A stretch of 64,000 bases of DNA from Candidatus Spongiisociaceae bacterium (GCA_965262915.1 OZ253564.1:1-64000), one strand, 5' to 3'. Positions 51,394 through 60,073 are shown, counted from the first letter of the stretch. Notes: generated by a model not told the origin, from the sequence alone. Made by a program: numbers and translations.

Positions 51394-51705
51394 CTACACA
51401 AAGAAGTTGTCTAACCACCAACCGGGCGGATTGTCGAGGTTGCCGAGCTCGCCGACCACCCAATCGGGTATCGGGCCTGCGAGCAGGTCACTAACAAGGT
51501 CAAAGTGCCCGACGAGAAGATGTACTGCAGCATGCACTGCGGCGGCGTGAACCGGCGGCCTCTTGATCCAGTCACCGAGCAAGTAGACGGGTAATAGGCC
51601 GAAGACACAGTCGGGTTTGTCCTCATAAAGCGTCCTGTAATCGCCGAGGTTGACTACCCCGCTCAACCAATCGGCGATCGGTCTGTCGGTGACCTGCGCC
51701 AGGTA
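51394..51705 (-). pseudogene. 3' fragment of an unknown gene abutting the ISL3 break point
   Basis: Open frame EYLAQVTDRPIADWLSGVVNLG...LDNFFV* begins at the ISL3 truncation. Confidence 0.4.
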
Positions 51706-52423
51706 TTCTGACGTGGAACGGGTCTGCTACTTGGAGGGCGTGGGGCAGCACCCTGTCATACGCCTTCCGATACGAACCGGACATGTCCAACACCGCCCAG
51801 CGGATACCCCCAAGCCAATCCGCCGGTTGTGACCGGAACCAGGCTGCGGCGCTTTCTGCTGTTTTACCAGGGACTATGTCGATCAGCTGGTGGCCCCCAA
51901 CGTCGACGACAGAGGTGCACCAGACTTTGGTGCGCCACCGGCCTTTCCGCCAGAACAACGTCTCGTCGATGCCCACAGCTTGGACCTCGCCTATCCGATC
52001 GGTGTCGGCTTCCAACAGGGCTTCGCCCCAGCGGACGACCTCGTTGTTCACCGTATGCCAATCACAACCCAACTCCGCGGCGACCTCGTCGACCGAACGG
52101 CCCCGCCCACCCACCTGGATGGTCACCCACCGCGCCGCTCGGGATGTCAACAACGCCCGTTGGGGACCAATCGTGGGGTCTTGTTCGATGAACGACCTGA
52201 GCGCACAGTCGGTGTTCGGACACGTCCAGCGCCGTTTCCGCCACCGCAGCCGCACAGGCCGACCGAACGCCGGTAAATCCACCAACACCACCCTCCGATA
52301 GCCCTTCGACCACACCGACCCGCCACATGCCACACACACCGGGCGGGCCTTGCGGGACCCGATCACCACCTTGAACCGCACCGGGTTTTCCGGAGACTCG
52401 ATTAGTTGGGAGATAATGGAGTC

Positions 52424-54815
<2,392 letters not shown>

Positions 54816-55647
54816 CAATATCTGTCCATTCGCTACACGAACCGGCTGGCGGAAGCCGGCATCGAGCCATCGGTCGGCTCGGTTGGGGATTCCTACGATA
54901 ACGCCCTCGCGGAGTCCGTCATTGGTCTGTACAAGACAGAACTCATCCACAAACGCGCTCCGTGGAAGGACCTCGACCAAGTCGAGTACGCCACCCTCGA
55001 ATACGTCGACTGGTTCAACCACCGGCGGCTTCTCGAACCCATCGGAGACATCCCACCAGCAGAAAAGGAGGCCAACTACCATCAACAACAGGAACGAGTC
55101 CAGCTAGCTGGACTCAAGTAAAACACTCTCCGGCAAACCCGGTACGGTTCACCTCAAGAGGTGCACCCTCGCCCGGGTCGTTGATCCCCACCAGATCAAC
55201 CTCACCTAGGCCTACCAACTTCTCGCACATGCGCGCAGGGATCAGCTTCCACAGGGGTCCTCCTGCCTCGGATGTCATTACCAACACCCGATTATGGAGG
55301 ACCCCTCCTCACTTCTGGTGGATTCCAACTCCCCCTGGCAGATCCCCTACTCCCCACTCATTTCCGAAGAGCCACATATCAAGCGTTGTGTAGCTCCCGC
55401 CCCCCTGTCGTCTAAGAACCGGAAACGACCACAAATATAGAACGCCCCTAGGAGTACCCCAGCGGAAGGGCTGTCCGCTGCCCACAGCGGGGAAGGGCAT
55501 GGGTTTGGCTCTTGCGGACACCCGGATGGGGGTGCTCTCCGCCGCTACCGGTCGGCCGGTAACGGCTGATCCTGCTCACCGGTTGTCGGAACCGTGTATC
55601 CGGGAACTGAAGTTATCGTGTCTTTGGGCAAGAGAAAAGGGGGCAGG

Positions 55648-55869
55648 ATGATCCTGCGACGATTCTTCCGCCTGCTGCTGAACAAGAACTGGCAGCCTTC
55701 CGCTTCAACCGTGGACGACTCGCTCGCCAAGACTGCCATGGACGCCCTGGACATACGGAGCGGACCGGGAGCGGGGGGCGCCGCCTTTCCAGGTACCAGC
55801 CAAGCGCACGAACGTATCGCCGAGGGCCACGAGAACTACACCAAGTCGTTCAAGAAGAAAGACAGCTAG
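55648..55869 (+). CDS. Small hypothetical protein
   Basis: Purine-rich RBS, GC3-biased codons, followed by GCAGGGCG/CGCCCTGC hairpin. Confidence 0.55.
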   Translation: MILRRFFRLLLNKNWQPSASTVDDSLAKTAMDALDIRSGPGAGGAAFPGTSQAHERIAEGHENYTKSFKKKDS

Positions 55870-56386
55870 CTAGCCCCGATTCTTCACCGGTTGGCGGTTC
55901 GGGAGTGTAGGCAGGCAGGGCGCCGCCCTGCTTCGCCCCTGCGACCCGTCGAGGGGGCCTCCGGGGTTGCCTGGCCGGTTCACAGGCGTGCTCACCTAGT
56001 CGGCAACAGGGCTCAACAGGGTCAAGGTCCTTCTTGGCTTATAAGGTCTCATGCAGTTCGGTCTGGCTCGACAAGGTGTTTCTCCCTTTCGAAATCGGGG
56101 CTTCTTTCATCGTGCCACTAACAACCCGACGACACCAACCCGAACGAAAGGGAACCCGCCAGTTGCCACCGGTGCCACAGCCACAGCGCCTGAGGCTCCA
56201 CAGCGGAAGGGTGCTCCGTTACCGGTCTTCCATGTCGGGAGGGCTAGCTGACACTGGCGCCGTCTCGTCAAGCCTGCTTACATCCGAACCTGCCCCTCCG
56301 AAGAATCAGGTCGTAGACTTGGGTGAACGGAAAGCACCCGGCCGTCCTGTACGGGGGACGCCGACGGTGGCACGACACGAGGAGTC

Positions 56387-56752
56387 ATGAACATGCTGCG
56401 CGTACCGATGATCATCCTGGCCGTTCTTTATCTTGCCTTCTCAGTATTCACCGCATTGGTGGGGGCCTTCGCCGACGGTGGCACGATTCCCGAGCGTATC
56501 CTCGTGAGCCTCATCCACCCGGCAGCAGCCATCCTGCTCCTCTTGGCGGTCGTCTCCTTTTCGAAGCCCATTTCAACGAGGCGTCGCGGGTTCACCCTGG
56601 TGTTGCTGCTGGTCGCCATCGCAGCAGACCTCGTGCTCGCCGTACTGATAGGCCTGGGTGTGGTAAAAGGTGATTGGTTCCTACCGCTGGTCTTCGCGGT
56701 CGTCCCCGTGATCGGAGTCGCCTACCTGACAGCGGGCGCCAAGACCACCTGA
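56387..56752 (+). CDS. Hypothetical four-helix membrane protein
   Basis: RBS GAGGAG, four hydrophobic segments. Confidence 0.78.
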   Translation: MNMLRVPMIILAVLYLAFSVFTALVGAFADGGTIPERILVSLIHPAAAILLLLAVVSFSKPISTRRRGFTLVLLLVAIAADLVLAVLIGLGVVKGDWFLPLVFAVVPVIGVAYLTAGAKTT

Positions 56753-56886
56753 GAAGCACACCGCCCCCAACTCTTCAAGAGGATGGGGTAGGTAGAGGCA
56801 CGCTTAGCCGAAGCCATGCCAAACTCCCCCCGGAGTCCCCCCAGCGGAAGGGTGCTCCGTTGCCGGTCTTCCTCGAGGCGCTGCCG

Positions 56887-57030
56887 CTACGGTCTCTTGC
56901 GCCATTTGTTAACCCAGCGCCAGGTCTTCACGACCCATCCGCGAAGCGTCGGCAACGCTAGGAGCGCGGTGGCCACCAGCACGCCCCCCGCTGCAGTGAG
57001 CACTCCCCAGATCAGATCAGAGCGTTCCAT
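56887..57030 (-). CDS. 47-aa single-TM peptide with basic, Trp-rich tail
   Basis: GGAG RBS before ATG; MERSDLIWGVLTAAGGVLVATALLALPTLRGWVVKTWRWVNKWRKRP. Confidence 0.55.
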   Translation of the reverse strand: MERSDLIWGVLTAAGGVLVATALLALPTLRGWVVKTWRWVNKWRKRP

Positions 57031-57726
57031 TTTCAACTCCGGTTTGTTTGCCAGACCCAGATCACCACCAACCGAAACGGTCAACTGAGATGAGCAAAGG
57101 ACACCAAGGGCCCCGGCCTCTTATGACACGGATGTGATTCTAGAGATGGCCGTACCGGGCCAGGTCCAGGGTGGGCGGGGCTGAGCCTCGTTAACGGAAG
57201 GGTCCCCCGCTGCCGCCGCCCGGGCGAACAGCGAGGTAACCGGATCCCCCAGCACGCTATGCATGATCACTGCAGGCATCATCGTGCACCTACGGGCAGC
57301 TTTGCCGCAACTGAGTATCCCTATAAGGAGCTCGCACCATCGTCGTAATGAAGTGAGGCCGTCACCGTCAACACCGACGGACAACTTCGCCGAATCCGGG
57401 ATCATCACTACGCCGGCGGCGACCCCGACGGGGACCGTGGCGCCGGCTGTCCTGAGACGCCCAGCCTGCCTAACTCCCCCCAGACGCCCTCCAGGCGGAA
57501 GGGGATGTCCGCTGCCACCAGCAGTGGAAACCCTGGTCAAGGCACGACTCAGGACCGATTCAGGTGCACAAGTCCCACAGGCTGTACCACTGTCCACCGG
57601 AATACCCGACGCAGCCACGGGGCTAGATCGTCTCGACCGTCGTCCATTTACCCATCTTGCATTCGCGGAGGCCGGCCGGGTTCGAAGGGTCAAACCCGGG
57701 CGCGTCACGACTCGAGATGACGCGAC

Positions 57727-57761
57727 ACGGCTTCCCCTGCCCGAGCGGCAGGGGAAGCCGT
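57727..57761 (-). terminator. Perfect 15-bp stem-loop terminator after the SBP gene
   Basis: ACGGCTTCCCCTGCC-cgagc-GGCAGGGGAAGCCGT, 20 bp past the stop. Confidence 0.75.
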
Positions 57762-57780
57762 CTGCGCCTTTCCTCAGGCT

Positions 57781-59079
57781 CTAGCTAGCGATGTCTCCGT
57801 TCGGGCCAACGCCGCTTCCGAGCGGCTGATTGATGAAGTCCACGAGGTCCTGTCTTGCCATGAGATCAGCGAAGACCTTGGCCTCGAGCTCGTAATCGTC
57901 CCAGGTCAGTTCCGGCATGGACGCGAACGCGGCCTGGCCGGGGATTCCGAACCACGTATCAGCGTTCTCGTCGTACAGGAGCGTGGCTGCCTCCTCGAGC
58001 GTGAAGAAGTGATTCAGCTCGGTGAGGATCTGGGTCGTGAGAAGCTCGCCCAGGCTTTCGCCTCCGGTCGCTGCCAGAGCGTCAGCCGTAACGAACTCCC
58101 CGACGATCTCCGGGTAAGCCTCGAGGTACCGGGCAGCCCGGTACCACGCGGCCACCGTCCTCAGCACGGTCTCGTAACAGCAGTCCAGGTAGTCCTGGCT
58201 CACTCCTTCGGTGCTGTACCACAGCGCCCGGCCGCCGAACAGCTCGAGCGGTCCGACCACGACGTACTGCCCGGCAAGCTCCTCTGAGTAGAGCATTCTT
58301 GCCTGCCGGTTCAAGGTCCCCAGGTAGAGATCGAACTCGCCGGCGAGGAACGCCTGCCCGAGGGCATCGCGGTTCGCGGGGCGCGAGATCACGACGTCAT
58401 CGAGGGTGAGGCCTATCTCCTCGAGGAAGATCCGGATGGGCGCCACCGATCCGCCCTCTTGGCGGGGAATGTCCTTGCCGCGGACGAACTCGGCTAGGTC
58501 CGCTTTCGCAGCCTCAACGTCGCCGTTGTTGTCGGCGAGAGCCTGTTCCCAGGTGAGATCTCCGGTGCGGCCGATGACCACGAAGCCCTTGTAGTGGTTG
58601 GTGATCAGGGGCGTGCGATACCCCGGGAACTCCTCCAGCACTGCCTGGTAGCAGAACTGGCACGAGAACAGCCAGTCGACCTCGCCGAGCGCGACCTGCT
58701 GGAACGGGATGTCCACGAACGGGATCAACTCGAACGTCAGGCCGAGCTGCTCCGGAATGCCGATGGCATCTGCGTATGCGAAGAGCCGATCGTCGTAACT
58801 CGGCGTGGTCCCGATGCGAACTACGCCGCCCCGACCGTCGTCGGGTGGCGTGGACAGGTCGTCCATCGGCTCCTCTGCCATCGTCGTGGCCGTCGCATCG
58901 CGCGCCACGGTCGGGATGGCCGCGGTCGTGGCTGGATCCGTGGTCGCTTGGGTTGGCTCGTCGTCCCCGCACGCCGCGGCAACGAGTGCCATGACCGTGA
59001 GGACGGCAACGAGTGGCAATCGGCGGTCCCAGACCCTTCTTCTCTTGGTTCTTCTCTCGGTCGTGGCTCGACGGTCCAT
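57781..59079 (-). CDS. ABC transporter substrate-binding lipoprotein (NitT/TauT/SsuA-like)
   Basis: Lipobox AAAC, Thr-rich linker, GEVD, AFLAGEFD, AWYRAARYL; follows a TauC-like permease. Confidence 0.78.
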   Translation of the reverse strand: MDRRATTERRTKRRRVWDRRLPLVAVLTVMALVAAACGDDEPTQATTDPATTAAIPTVARDATATTMAEEPMDDLSTPPDDGRGGVVRIGTTPSYDDRLFAYADAIGIPEQLGLTFELIPFVDIPFQQVALGEVDWLFSCQFCYQAVLEEFPGYRTPLITNHYKGFVVIGRTGDLTWEQALADNNGDVEAAKADLAEFVRGKDIPRQEGGSVAPIRIFLEEIGLTLDDVVISRPANRDALGQAFLAGEFDLYLGTLNRQARMLYSEELAGQYVVVGPLELFGGRALWYSTEGVSQDYLDCCYETVLRTVAAWYRAARYLEAYPEIVGEFVTADALAATGGESLGELLTTQILTELNHFFTLEEAATLLYDENADTWFGIPGQAAFASMPELTWDDYELEAKVFADLMARQDLVDFINQPLGSGVGPNGDIAS

Positions 59080-59167
59080 AACGTCCTCCCGTCTGTCGGT
59101 GCTGTTTTCTCAGATGCCCCTTGTTCCCGTTTTCTTCCGGCGCTGAAAGCAACTCGCTACACGAGCG

Positions 59168-60073
59168 TCACTGCCGTCCTATCAGTTCACCGGCGATGCC
59201 GGTTCCCTCGCCGCGAGGGCTCCATCTCGTTGCTCTGCGAGTGATCACCCTGATAATGTAGTCGGACACGACCGCCATGAAGGCGAAGATCAAGACGATC
59301 AGGACAACTCCTGCGGTGTCCAGATAGACGTTTCGCACGAGCATGATGTAGCCCAAGCCCTCGCGTGAGCCCATGAACTCGGCCGCGACATCGAGACCCC
59401 ACGCGGACATCACCGCAAATCGGATGGCAGCCAGCATGTGGGGCACGATCGCGGGAATGACGACCGTGCGATAGATGTGGAAGCGGGAAGCCCCGCTCAC
59501 GAGGGCGGCCTTGATGTATATCAGAGGCACGTTGCGGGCCGCCTCGGTGGTGTGGATGGTCAGGATGAGGAAGACTCCCGTCGCGATGAGGGCGATCTGT
59601 GGAGTCTTACCGATCCCGAACCAGAGAATGAACAGCGGAATCAGCGCAAAGAGAGGGATCGGCCTTACGGCATCGGTCGTAAACTCCAACAGGTTCCGAG
59701 CCCACCTGCTGTACCCGAAGGACAATCCGACCCCCAGCCCGAGCACTCCGCCGATCAGCAGGCCCAACCCGACCATCTCCATGGTCGTCAGCCACGCATC
59801 CGGGAGGATCGGCCAGAGCGCGACCAGGATCTTCCGGACCCGCTCCGGTTTCGGGATCACGATCTCGCGGAAGAGATCGAGAGCGCTCACAGCCCACCAC
59901 AGGAGCCCCAGCGACACCGGGAGGACGAACGGCGCGATTTTCCACAGGTTCCACTTCGGCTTGGATCCCGCGGTGGGGCCTTCTTGAGGCCGCGCTTTCC
60001 CGGTGGTCGCGTCGTATGCGCCGCTGTCTGTATCAGGAGACGGCCGGCCTTCGACTTTGACGCGTTCTGACAT
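59168..60073 (-). CDS. ABC transporter permease (SsuC/TauC-like)
   Basis: RPIPLFALIPLFILWFGIG, KAALVSGAS, VAAEFMGS..GLGY. Confidence 0.9.
   Translation of the reverse strand: MSERVKVEGRPSPDTDSGAYDATTGKARPQEGPTAGSKPKWNLWKIAPFVLPVSLGLLWWAVSALDLFREIVIPKPERVRKILVALWPILPDAWLTTMEMVGLGLLIGGVLGLGVGLSFGYSRWARNLLEFTTDAVRPIPLFALIPLFILWFGIGKTPQIALIATGVFLILTIHTTEAARNVPLIYIKAALVSGASRFHIYRTVVIPAIVPHMLAAIRFAVMSAWGLDVAAEFMGSREGLGYIMLVRNVYLDTAGVVLIVLIFAFMAVVSDYIIRVITRRATRWSPRGEGTGIAGELIGRQ

Follow-up and report, generated by a model that had tools for sequence, protein, structure and literature searches.

Organization of the array

The window, that is, the whole 64-kb stretch of DNA that was analyzed (positions 1–64000), contains near its end an array of five short palindromic sites (cores between 55460 and 57514) separating small genes. 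Coordinates of the sites, genes, and modules are given in Table 1. An earlier note on this DNA had described five same-strand copies of CAGCGGA-AGGGnnn(n)-TCCGYTG with spacings of 741, 641, 350, and 301 bp, and all five were recovered on the plus strand with the same positions and the same spacings. The pattern CGGAAGGGN{3,4}CCGYT matched four of the five sites (chance expectation 0.02; none of 100 shuffles gave four matches), the fifth falling outside the pattern with a spacer longer by one base. As the note had also claimed, no further full copy was found elsewhere in the 64 kb.

Table 1. Features of the array and its surroundings (window positions; genome positions are marked as such).
Feature	Position	Strand	Description
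ISL3-family insertion sequence, outer end	55150..55374	-	On the left of site 1, 85 bp away; over 40 copies of this end in the genome
Site 1	55442..55484 (core 55460–55480)	+	CAGCGGA AGGGCTG TCCGCTG; 7-bp arms, 7-nt spacer; first site of the array; C-rich block before the core
Third CAGCGG arm and second GGAAGGG half-site	55485..55500	+	Directly behind site 1
Interval 1 gene (73 aa)	55648..55869	+	No Pfam family; GC3 0.74, coding-like
Interval 1 segment	56011..56190	+	89–91% homologous to the site-proximal end of the TM2-protein module (genome 1422086–1422308, 1238726–1238905)
Site 2	56183..56226 (core 56201–56221)	+	CAGCGGA AGGGTGC TCCGTTA
Interval 2 gene (121 aa)	56387..56752	+	Membrane-like protein; no Pfam family; GC3 0.75, coding-like
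Site 3	56824..56867 (core 56842–56862)	+	CAGCGGA AGGGTGC TCCGTTG
Interval 3 possible ORF (65 aa)	56887..57084	-	Strand opposite to the sites; weak coding signal, GC3 0.68; no Pfam family
Site 4	57174..57217 (core 57192–57212)	+	TAACGGA AGGGTCC CCCGCTG; left arm TAACGGA degenerate
D1 downstream module, start	57195..57257	+	Begins GCCGCCGCCCGGGCGAACAGCGAGGTAACCGG...; same start behind at least six other genome sites
U1 module	57357..57485	+	Decayed 3' end of a 57-aa gene, frames broken
Site 5	57475..57518 (core 57493–57514)	+	AGGCGGA AGGGGATG TCCGCTG; 8-nt spacer; last site of the array
D2/D3 terminal non-coding module	57515..57662	+	79–80% homologous to stretches behind the last sites at genome 518370 and 1263746

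Site anatomy was compared over 42 copies. The arm pairs were 88–100% complementary; the left arm and the following AGGG were nearly invariant, and the right arm had two alleles, C or T. The spacer was 7–8 nt long, asymmetric, and began with AGGG. Similarity upstream of the core, which the earlier note had put at about 15 bp, is real and extends further: it represents a C-rich block, CCCC(C)TGAG-CCCCTCC, and the conserved element, composed of this block and the 21-bp core, is about 42 bp long. The degenerate copy suggested at 55485 is better described as a third CAGCGG arm together with a second GGAAGGG half-site, an arrangement also found behind the sites at genome positions 1421004, 2868289, and 4436249. 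Core sites of tyrosine recombinases consist of inverted arms around an asymmetric spacer of 6–8 bp, and the sites have this simple layout. They are always located between ORFs.

Small ORFs are present in three of the four intervals, in line with the earlier note, and the fourth contains nothing but a 57-aa gene's decayed 3' end. Both coding-like genes, in intervals 1 and 2, have paralogues elsewhere in the genome with homology stopping near the ORF ends. The paralogue of the interval 1 gene (genome 1950134–1950468, 74% DNA identity) has no site within about 400 bp on either side. The distal part of interval 1 is shared with TM2-protein modules, and the intervals are therefore mosaic internally as well as at their borders. 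The U1 module had 21 genome matches at E ≤ 1, of which 16 at E ≤ 1e-10; among 14 translated copies, an open frame was retained only at genome 1225531–1225704. The 57-aa protein had no Pfam family, its seven clusters of relatives were all without a name, and its structure model was poor (pLDDT 56). In this genome, the array is bordered on its left by the ISL3-family end, which is not the case in other strains. A tRNA scan of the window found no tRNA, and no conserved gene that could be an insertion target was recognized in it.

Distribution and orientation of the sites

The genome has a GC content of 64% and belongs to the class Acidimicrobiia, as judged by its relatives. It contains 58 credible copies of the site, grouped in 21 clusters. 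All 21 clusters are in regions where insertion sequences and integrases abound, and the non-mobile bulk of the genome has no copies. Over the whole genome, 33 copies are on the plus strand and 25 on the minus strand. Adjacent copies up to 4 kb apart had the same strand in 27 of 30 pairs and opposite strands in three; at distances up to 1.5 kb, the numbers were 18 and 0. The earlier note had named REP-like scatter over the genome in both orientations as an outcome that would speak against its reading. Half of this was found: both strands are used, but the copies are confined to clusters in mobile regions and are locally co-oriented. No replication-strand bias of site orientation was apparent in a by-eye comparison with the GC-skew turning points.

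Co-orientation of the sites is independent of gene direction. Among 13 intervals with mechanically called ORFs, the longest ORF of at least 120 aa was on the site strand in five and on the opposite strand in eight. Most intervals are 0.3–3 kb long, with at most one small gene each (overall range 0.28–3.1 kb). Gene families recurring near the clusters were most often IS3, IS30, ISL3, and IS110 transposases and, at lower frequency, two integrase families and a family of large surface-type proteins. We found no dedicated partner gene, and no gene family was present at most of the site clusters.

The sites are confined to the mobile regions of one lineage; their pattern was present in one of the 40 relatives searched. 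When the array was compared by BLAST with plasmids and phages, there was no match. Scanning all species genomes with the 21-mer pattern returned more than 104 stretches; among the 80 matches listed, 75 were single and came from unrelated taxa, which by our estimate is about what the size of the collection leads one to expect and is uninformative. A metagenome scan returned 16 stretches. Three of them (L153, L154, and L160) contained further sites or homologous modules, all matching one locus of the type found in genome G001. Ten had a single pattern match only, and for two (L148 and L156) the sole similarity was to unrelated multi-copy sequence at other places in the genome studied here (G000); L161 and L162 fell outside the BLAST results considered.

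Re-use of modules and switches of neighbors

Intervals recur elsewhere as whole units, with sites on both sides and with different neighbors. The whole of interval 2 (56201–56864) recurs at genome 657525–657874 and 663459–663772 with 84–85% identity, bounded by sites there and split by an insertion. The module at genome 2850077–2848144 matches 1488947–1485860, and that at 304196–302592 matches 1483.5–1481.4 kb and also locus L126 of G001. One 500-bp module is present six times. Relative to the site, blocks of homology end at +14 to +23 or start at −3 to −9. A module with a 365-aa gene is bounded by sites in both G000 and G001, and the sequences diverge directly behind its downstream site.

In public contigs from three other studies (three of four runs), interval 1 was found with a different left flank, the switch occurring exactly at the site edge, at 55459. 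In run X12 this alternative flank is of the U1 type; in run X5, one contig has the window's own arrangement. Overall, 58–99% of the window was recovered in nine studies. The stretches that flank the sites also form recurring types. The U and D modules are 60–240 bp long with 70–90% identity. The D2/D3 module was present behind the last site of an array in 12 cases and never behind an internal site; for the other downstream types, the counts were 19 last and 27 internal sites. Of the 30 copies of the E block, only 17 are located behind a site.

Excision circles, empty sites, and precise deletions from one site to the next were not observed; the only joints in public contigs were not site-to-site or were short-sided. 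One such joint, 56863 to 57437 (runs X5, X15, and X19), was not site-to-site, had a shorter side of 26 letters, and was absent from this genome; we took it as another strain or a repeat. A depth gap at 55511–55784 in X19 was dropped as evidence, as no long-sided contig joins across it.

Recombinases and integrases

The tyrosine recombinase family PF00589 had 31 matches in the genome, all of them outside positions 1–64000. The earlier note had reported that the window lacks a recombinase, and this is indeed so; any recombinase for the window array would have to act in trans. Serine recombinases were not found in the genome. The Y1/RAYT transposase family (PF01797) had no genome match, compared with matches in six of 14 control genomes. 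Tyrosine recombinases are thus the only site-specific recombinase family present among the families searched.

The array that ends at 1429776 is followed after 0.9 kb by a gene for a 332-aa Xer-like recombinase (genome 1430691–1431686), and the one that ends at 2848144 is followed after 1.7 kb by a C-terminal fragment of the same protein, 86% identical. These two loci share no other sequence, which stands against reading the sites as recombinase core sites. Within about 10 kb of a truncated 332-aa recombinase in G005, no sites were found. The 391-aa integrase family had 13 matches in G000, 10 in G001, and 0–2 in each of the 24 other relatives searched; hence, the family is expanded in the two site-holding genomes. 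Sites were not found within 4 kb at six of the 10 loci of this family examined, nor within that distance of the 338-aa paralogue of the Xer-like recombinase.

No recombinase gene adjoins the window array or most of the clusters. Integrase genes or fragments occur 0.2–5 kb from array ends at about five loci, with fragments near the G000 array ends at 4925458, 2848144, 1468491, and 1429776. In G001, the last site of an array is 0.8 kb from a fragment of the 391-aa family. An ORF about 260 bp from the same last site was read, by translation only, as an excisionase-like HTH gene. At 1238967, a degenerate site precedes a 423-aa integrase gene by about 90 bp. The orientation of the integrase relative to the site varies among loci, and an intact element with an integrase between two sites was not found. 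Recombinases are linked to the sites only by proximity at a few loci, and since integrases and insertion sequences are generally enriched near the sites, such proximity is weak evidence.

Fold and RNA analysis

For four of the window sites, fold stability did not exceed that of shuffles (z-scores from −0.67 to +0.91). The fifth had a z-score of −3.2, with a predicted fold representing a different hairpin, formed by the right arm and downstream sequence. The arm pairs had no covariation beyond shuffles (116 of 500 shuffles were equal or better), and the same was true of three alternative hairpins on the 42 copies. The polymorphic arm pair, on the site strand, was GC in 20 copies, GU in 16, and AU in two. 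No terminator-like T-run was found at the five window sites, and no promoter-like sites were found beside them. With Rfam 15, the window at gathering scores yielded only the ALIL pseudoknot of an IS3 element, the region at E ≤ 5 nothing relevant, and 15 site loci at E ≤ 1 one weak chance match only. RNAalifold on the D2/D3 and U1 alignments predicted 8 and 16 pairs, respectively, with compensatory changes almost absent and no supported structure. The sites resemble neither RNA nor single-strand structures.

Comparison with known systems

The arrays resemble integrons and CALINs, clusters of attC sites without an integron integrase (Cury et al., 2016, PMC4889954). Co-oriented sites part small, mostly orphan genes, a recombinase is absent beside many arrays, modules are re-used in other arrays, and a conserved block stands at one array end. 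They differ in the lack of IntI: a genome search with TIGR02249 gave twelve weak matches, the best with 63 bits vs. a cut-off of 265. Integron attC sites are imperfect palindromes of 57–141 bp with R'' (RYYYAAC) and R' (GTTRRRY) boxes, whereas here a 21-bp core lies in a 42-bp element; between 55380 and 57780 there were no R''...R' pairs on either strand and no GTTRRRY on the plus strand. In integrons, co-oriented sites separate single, mostly co-oriented promoterless ORFs; the sites studied here are co-oriented (27 to 3), and the genes point in both directions. Furthermore, the host belongs to the Actinomycetota, and in the survey of Cury et al. complete integrons were not found in Actinobacteria/Actinomycetota (PMC4889954). 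With no integron integrase and no attC boxes, the non-integron nature proposed in the earlier note holds.

The pdif (dif) modules of Acinetobacter plasmids are moved by XerC/XerD; their 28-bp sites (11 + 6 + 11) resemble chromosomal dif and flank the modules in inverted orientation (PMC6449649). Both systems have discrete modules bounded by short sites of the tyrosine-recombinase type in varied contexts, no dedicated recombinase in the module, and one arm better conserved than the other (PMC6449649, PMC13141974). Unlike pdif, the sites studied here have 7-bp arms and a 7–8-bp spacer, are GC-rich, form direct repeats (27 to 3), and are chromosomal, in a member of the Acidimicrobiia. A search for the host dif with a dif consensus gave only two candidates, each with five mismatches.

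Accretion of integrative elements and cis-mobilizable elements (CIMEs) at one att site leaves direct att repeats between tandem elements, and units without an integrase are mobilized in trans by a related integrase. The intervals studied here are far smaller (0.28–3.1 kb), the sites occupy 21 loci rather than one att locus, the window has no tRNA target, and no intact integrase element was found between two sites. Accretion of this kind has been reviewed (PMC5704250).

Short palindromic or asymmetric intergenic repeats include BOX, REP/BIME, MITEs, and the stoperators of cluster A mycobacteriophages; pneumococcal BOX repeats are modular, and stoperators share one orientation. The present sites differ from these in that no RAYT gene was found, copies are confined to mobile regions, sites border re-used modules, and their orientation is independent of gene direction. 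REP and REPIN copies are extragenic and dispersed, often as inverted pairs; here 58 copies form 21 clusters, and three of 30 close pairs are inverted.

Proposed mechanism and alternative explanations

On the sequence evidence, we tentatively read the sites as core sites of the simple type on which a tyrosine recombinase acts in trans, in a lineage-specific non-integron system of gene modules, and give this reading somewhat less than an even chance. A recombinase encoded elsewhere would excise an interval with one site as a circle, and the circle would be re-inserted at another site in a single direction, the direction being set, as we propose, by the asymmetric spacer. Exchange would be specific to the sites. 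Repeated insertion into a small platform, consisting of the 3' end of the 57-aa gene, a site, and the D2/D3 module, could build co-oriented arrays, and the window array 55460–57514 would be one such array ending on that platform. Candidate enzymes are the 332-aa Xer-like recombinase and the 391-aa integrase family. The full version, an integron-independent cassette system of Actinomycetota with circular modules, the 21-bp core, the Xer-like recombinase in trans, and a multi-locus platform of 57-aa tail, core, and D2/D3, is possible but doubtful. In that version, at least the cassette genes at 55648..55869 and 56387..56752 would be copies derived from ordinary genes of the chromosome. The cassette array mobilized in trans that the earlier note had envisaged is supported in part, by sites as module borders, co-orientation, switches at the site edge, and the non-integron nature; a recombination event, circle, or precise excision was not seen. 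Further observations argue against reading the sites as core sites. The internal mosaicism at 56011–56190 implies that other processes also rearrange the intervals, the U and D flanks of 60–240 bp offer enough homology for RecA-driven shuffling, and arms of 7 bp are short for a recombinase site by themselves.

The serious rival, which explains most of the same facts although we consider it rather unlikely, treats the element as a non-autonomous intergenic repeat of modular build, akin to BOX, MITE, or REP repeats, composed of U, core, D, and E blocks and spread in this lineage's mobile DNA, with island genes shuffled by homologous recombination and segmental duplication and no dedicated recombinase. 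It would account for the occurrence of blocks apart from the core, as seen for 13 of the 30 E copies, for the many U1 copies, for the similarity of the flanks and the mosaic intervals, for the use of both strands, and for the lack of a recombinase linked to the sites. Strict local co-orientation is unexpected from independent insertions, however, and the same holds against a repeat that copies occur only in the 21 clusters, that Y1/RAYT transposases are absent, and that D2/D3 is always at array ends (12 to 0); terminal inverted repeats and target duplications of the whole element were not recognized by eye. An unlikely explanation is accretion at the att core of integrative elements with a 391-aa or P4-like integrase, in which successive integrations and decay of the older elements left direct att repeats, as in cis-mobilizable elements. 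The putative excisionase-like ORF and the integrase fragment beyond the G001 array fit such accretion, as do the fragments near G000 array ends, the degenerate site before the 423-aa integrase gene, and the expansion of the integrase family in both site-holding genomes. Most intervals are too small for decayed elements and have no traces of integrase genes, though; integrase orientation is inconsistent, most of the examined 391-aa loci have no nearby site, and neither a tRNA nor a conserved gene was recognized as a target in the window.

Two further explanations concern expression. A repeated operator or insulator, the palindrome being bound between modules by a regulator or by a stoperator-like repressor of mobile elements that controls or blocks transcription, would suit a short palindrome with an invariant half-site that is always between ORFs and occurs many times, in mobile DNA only, and it agrees with the lack of fold stability and of an RNA family. 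This explanation is quite unlikely: it leaves the recurrence of site-bordered modules, the neighbor switches at the site edge, and the co-orientation regardless of gene direction unexplained, and no promoter-like sites accompany the window copies. An element acting at the RNA level, namely a terminator, Rho-entry element, or processing hairpin in which the C-rich tract and the hairpin end or process transcripts of the upstream module, is very unlikely. A C-rich, G-poor tract does lie directly upstream of the hairpin, and the GC, GU, and AU variants of the polymorphic pair would be tolerable in an RNA stem; against this stand the lack of a T-run, the four folds no better than shuffles and the different hairpin of the fifth, the lack of covariation and of an Rfam match, and the position of the longest ORF on the opposite strand in eight of 13 intervals.

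Significance

To our knowledge, among systems that store and reshuffle single-gene cassettes, only integrons are well understood, and the dif modules of Acinetobacter indicate that a similar job is possible for other recombinases. If the sites represent only a modular repeat, they would still be a clear case of repeat-guided shuffling of modules in genomic islands. The chromosomal paralogues of two cassette genes, with homology ending near the ORF ends, bear on the origin of cassettes, and the system might show how cassettes are made. If the reading as core sites of a tyrosine recombinase is true, the arrays would provide a new recombination site of compact size and perhaps a new enzyme as well. 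They would represent a third such system, located at multiple chromosomal loci in the Acidimicrobiia and using a very simple site, and would add to the known routes by which bacteria exchange small accessory and defence-type genes.

Structure and genomic distribution of the sites

The array sequence was read over positions 55000-58200 and was additionally searched with a repeat finder. Both approaches, together with the pattern statistics, bore out the five same-strand palindromic copies described in an earlier note. Each site consists of a CAGCGGA arm, from which copies 4 and 5 deviate, a spacer starting with AGGG (7 nt in copies 1-4 and 8 nt in copy 5), and a TCCGYTG arm; successive copies lie 741, 641, 350, and 301 bp apart. 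Four of the five sites, and no other position in the 64 kb, match the pattern CGGAAGGGN{3,4}CCGYT, in line with the earlier note, which noticed no further full copy in the window. The chance expectation was 0.02, and four matches were reached in 0 of 100 shuffles. The upstream similarity, earlier put at about 15 bp, is present and spans about 20 bp of C-rich sequence (...CCCC(C)TGAG-CCCCTCC); since a few bases are conserved downstream too, the unit is about 42 bp long.

Coordinates of sites and associated features (genome coordinates where indicated)
Feature	Position	Strand	Remarks
Site 1 core	55460-55480	+	sequence reading and repeat finder
Site 2 core	56201-56221	+	sequence reading and repeat finder
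Site 3 core	56842-56862	+	sequence reading and repeat finder
Site 4 core	57192-57212	+	degenerate left arm; sequence reading and repeat finder
Site 5 core	57493-57514	+	degenerate left arm, 8-nt spacer; sequence reading and repeat finder
IS30-family transposase	53369-54769	-	element lies within the IS3-family element
IS3-family element	52406-55121		ALIL frameshift pseudoknot 52702-52818; within ISL3-family transposase gene
ISL3-family element transposase gene, split	51623-52501 and 55114-55287
E repeat, examples (genome)	541617-541830; 1387451-1387599; 2333293-2333442
Putative defence-like ORF loci (genome)	302592-304196; ~4434.5-4435.6 kb; ~1388.4-1389.1 kb; 518.6-520.9 kb		judged by eye

The 5.06-Mb genome (64% GC) is a single contig, and the window lies at its start; record titles of the closest relatives of a housekeeping gene place it in the class Acidimicrobiia. 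A nucleotide profile, iterated over the whole genome, gave 64 candidates. Of these, 58 sites were retained; the rows left out were those with E > 0.3, a palindromic copy read in reverse, and one uncertain row. They form 21 clusters (33 sites on the plus strand, 25 on the minus strand), surrounded by insertion sequences and tyrosine-recombinase genes. Adjacent sites no more than 1.5 kb apart were on the same strand in 18 cases and on opposite strands in none; up to 4 kb, the numbers were 27 and 3. The exact pattern CAGCGGARGGGNNNTCCGYTG had 27 matches in this genome and two in the same-genus genome G001, and was missing from the other 39 relatives searched (G028 counted among the negatives); its reversed control had 0 matches in every genome. 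With this distribution, the element is young, lineage-specific, and limited to mobile DNA.

A metagenome scan yielded 16 stretches with the site pattern. Among the BLAST matches listed, to which L161 and L162 do not belong, L153, L154, and L160 contain homologous modules or more sites, and the three match a single G001-type locus; ten stretches have a single pattern match only, and L148 and L156 match only unrelated multi-copy sequence elsewhere in the genome studied here.

At genome 1483530-1483575, the site is a long near-perfect palindrome with an upstream-type flank on each side, head to head. This fits the leftover of an inversion between two inverted sites; homologous recombination is equally possible. 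Three nested insertion sequences occupy window positions 51600-55374, and the same IS3-with-IS30 composite is found at genome 1417-1420 kb, ~0.9 kb away from a different array of sites. Just past the stop of a solute-binding-protein gene (57781-59079, minus strand), positions 57727-57761 form a perfect 15-bp inverted repeat (ACGGCTTCCCCTGCC / GGCAGGGGAAGCCGT), which is probably the terminator of that gene and lies outside the array.

Flanking blocks and intervals

Upstream flanks of the sites fall into few types, of which U1 is the most frequent (21 genome matches at E ≤ 1, including 16 at E ≤ 1e-10). It represents the 3' end of a 57-aa gene, the frame of which was open in one of 14 translated copies (genome 1225531-1225704) and broken in the window copy (57357-57485). 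In a set of 5.8 billion proteins, the 57-aa protein had seven relative clusters, all without a name; it matched no Pfam family. Downstream flanks likewise fall into types. The D1 block runs on into the non-coding 130-nt E block (...TTTCGAGCCGCC-GTTTCGGGCGGAAACACCCC...GTTAACCAA...GGGCCGGGAGAACCCGCC...), which has no Rfam match and is present in 30 genome copies, 17 behind a site and 13 not. D2/D3, a non-coding block of 130-170 nt, was found behind 12 sites, each of them the last of its array, while other downstream types stand behind 19 last and 27 internal sites. The window array ends with U1, site 5, and D2 (57357-57662). At two loci U1, a site, and D3 occur together, at genome 550217 without any cassette and at 1387971 with a single short interval, devoid of genes, upstream; the two loci resemble the unfilled and nearly unfilled states.

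Modules were compared by all-against-all BLAST of 1.2-kb site neighbourhoods and by BLAST of the window array against the genome. In these comparisons, one and the same upstream block was joined to differing downstream blocks and vice versa. Counted from the site, homology stopped at +14 to +23 or began at -3 to -9. Entire intervals are found again between two sites but in other neighbourhoods: window 56201-56864 at genome 657525-657874 and 663459-663772 (84-85%), 2850077-2848144 at 1488947-1485860, and 304196-302592 at 1483.5-1481.4 kb and at a G001 locus. A module with a 365-aa gene is common to this genome and G001 and is site-bounded in both, divergence starting directly behind the downstream site. 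Another module, of 500 bp, has six genome copies. Intervals are also mosaic inside, for example at 56011-56190. In a few cases in which sites share their upstream module, the C/T allele of the right arm and the variable bases of the spacer track the downstream module. Any exchange point would then fall toward the left of the spacer, a reading of individual cases rather than a statistical one.

The six-copy module (2293110-2292434, 1380206-1379928, and four more) carries a conserved 55-aa ORF with the Cys/His pattern …GRxCxxDSCxxRLSIYNxxDHCxLHSP…, which may be a small zinc-ribbon protein. ORFs judged by eye to be defence- or addiction-like lie in several intervals and just past last sites: a 385-aa protein with a DUF4062-like start, HNH-like, dCTP-deaminase-like, and large helicase-like proteins, and a pair of an Xre-type HTH-like protein and a RelE-like toxin.

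Variation in public sequencing runs

Part of the stretch was contained in 20 public runs from nine studies, and contigs were aligned from four runs, one per study. A 388-nt contig from run X12 matches the window from 55459, and its preceding 209 letters differ and end U1-like; a 703-nt contig from X15 matches 55459-56018 and is preceded by 35 differing letters. Run X5 has two contigs of low depth in which a U1-type stretch leads into 55459/55460, while a separate contig (55346-56074) has the window's own arrangement. Therefore, the left neighbour of interval 1 differs among natural genomes, the switch falling at the left edge of the core; the contigs are metagenomic and could represent paralogous loci or relatives. 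The right part of the array (56810-59200) was unbroken in X5 and X15. The contigs of the four runs showed neither a circle nor a site-to-site deletion.

Candidate recombinases

The genome had 31 tyrosine-recombinase hits. The array ending at 1429776 is followed after 0.9 kb, beyond an ISL3 fragment, by a gene for a 332-aa Xer-like protein, for which every NCBIfam match is under the cut-off. A C-terminal fragment with 86% identity to it stands 1.7 kb past the end of the array at 2848144. Gene and fragment are both on the other strand from the sites. These two loci have nothing else in common. Outside this genome the subfamily was represented only by a copy in G005, truncated and 75% identical, and by a G001 protein of 50% identity. 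A 391-aa integrase family had 13 matches here, 10 in G001, and 0-2 per genome in 24 other relatives searched. At several array ends, fragments of the family occur at a distance of 0.2-5 kb. Six of the ten family loci examined, and the 338-aa paralogue, had no site within 4 kb. Insertion sequences are likewise enriched near sites. These last two observations speak against a link between recombinase and site, as does the lack of shared sequence at the two 332-aa loci, and we regard the link as no more than a lead.

Possible nature of the array

Several known systems were rejected. The genome encodes no IntI and the array region has no attC boxes, so the array is non-integron, as had been proposed; the longest ORFs of at least 120 aa (mechanical ORFs) also run both ways, on the site strand in five intervals and on the opposite strand in eight. 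A REP/RAYT system is rejected (a local REP family was one alternative of the earlier note), as no Y1 transposase is present in the genome, and so is a serine-recombinase system, no such enzyme being encoded. The Rfam search suggested in that note found no relevant RNA family in the window, the array region, or the site loci, and none of the window sites was flagged as a classical terminator. Nor is the site of the dif type: dif-type sites are 28 bp long and bracket their modules as inverted repeats (PMC6449649).

We tentatively consider the sites to be simple tyrosine-recombinase cores bounding trans-mobilised modules, which would accumulate on a platform of U1, core, and D3. Such cores would explain the layout, the co-orientation of sites independent of gene direction, the restriction to mobile DNA, the re-use of modules, the terminal D2/D3, and the neighbour switch at the core. 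A modular repeat shuffled by homologous recombination accounts for the mosaic blocks and the missing enzyme but fails on co-orientation and the terminal block, and we hold it less likely. Accretion at an integrative-element att site would fit the proximity of integrases but not intervals this tiny, and is improbable. Still more doubtful is an operator or insulator. Least probable is an element acting as RNA: the 7-bp stem is kept as sequence, its single polymorphic pair being GC (n=20), GU (n=16), or AU (n=2), and no covariation above shuffles was found in it, and nothing points to selection for pairing. Of the five window sites, four folded no better than shuffles; the remaining one did (z -3.2), yet its predicted hairpin is a different one, formed by the right arm with downstream sequence.

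The nearest known systems are CALIN integron arrays and dif modules, but their defining features are missing here. Cury et al. (PMC4889954) detected no complete integron in Actinobacteria. As recombinase cores, the sites would place the system with a known kind, modules bounded by site-specific recombination sites. Our impression, from literature surveyed by system type rather than by motif or lineage, is that the motif is apparently undescribed.

Two window cassette genes, at 55648-55869 and 56387-56752, have chromosomal paralogues, at 353808-354146 (78% DNA identity) and at 1950134-1950468 (74%), the latter paralogue corresponding to the gene at 55648-55869. There is no site within ~400 bp on either side of these paralogues, and the homology stops near the ORF ends, with ~100 nt upstream added in one case. 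If the sites are indeed recombinase cores bounding mobilised modules, these paralogues would bear on the origin of cassettes.
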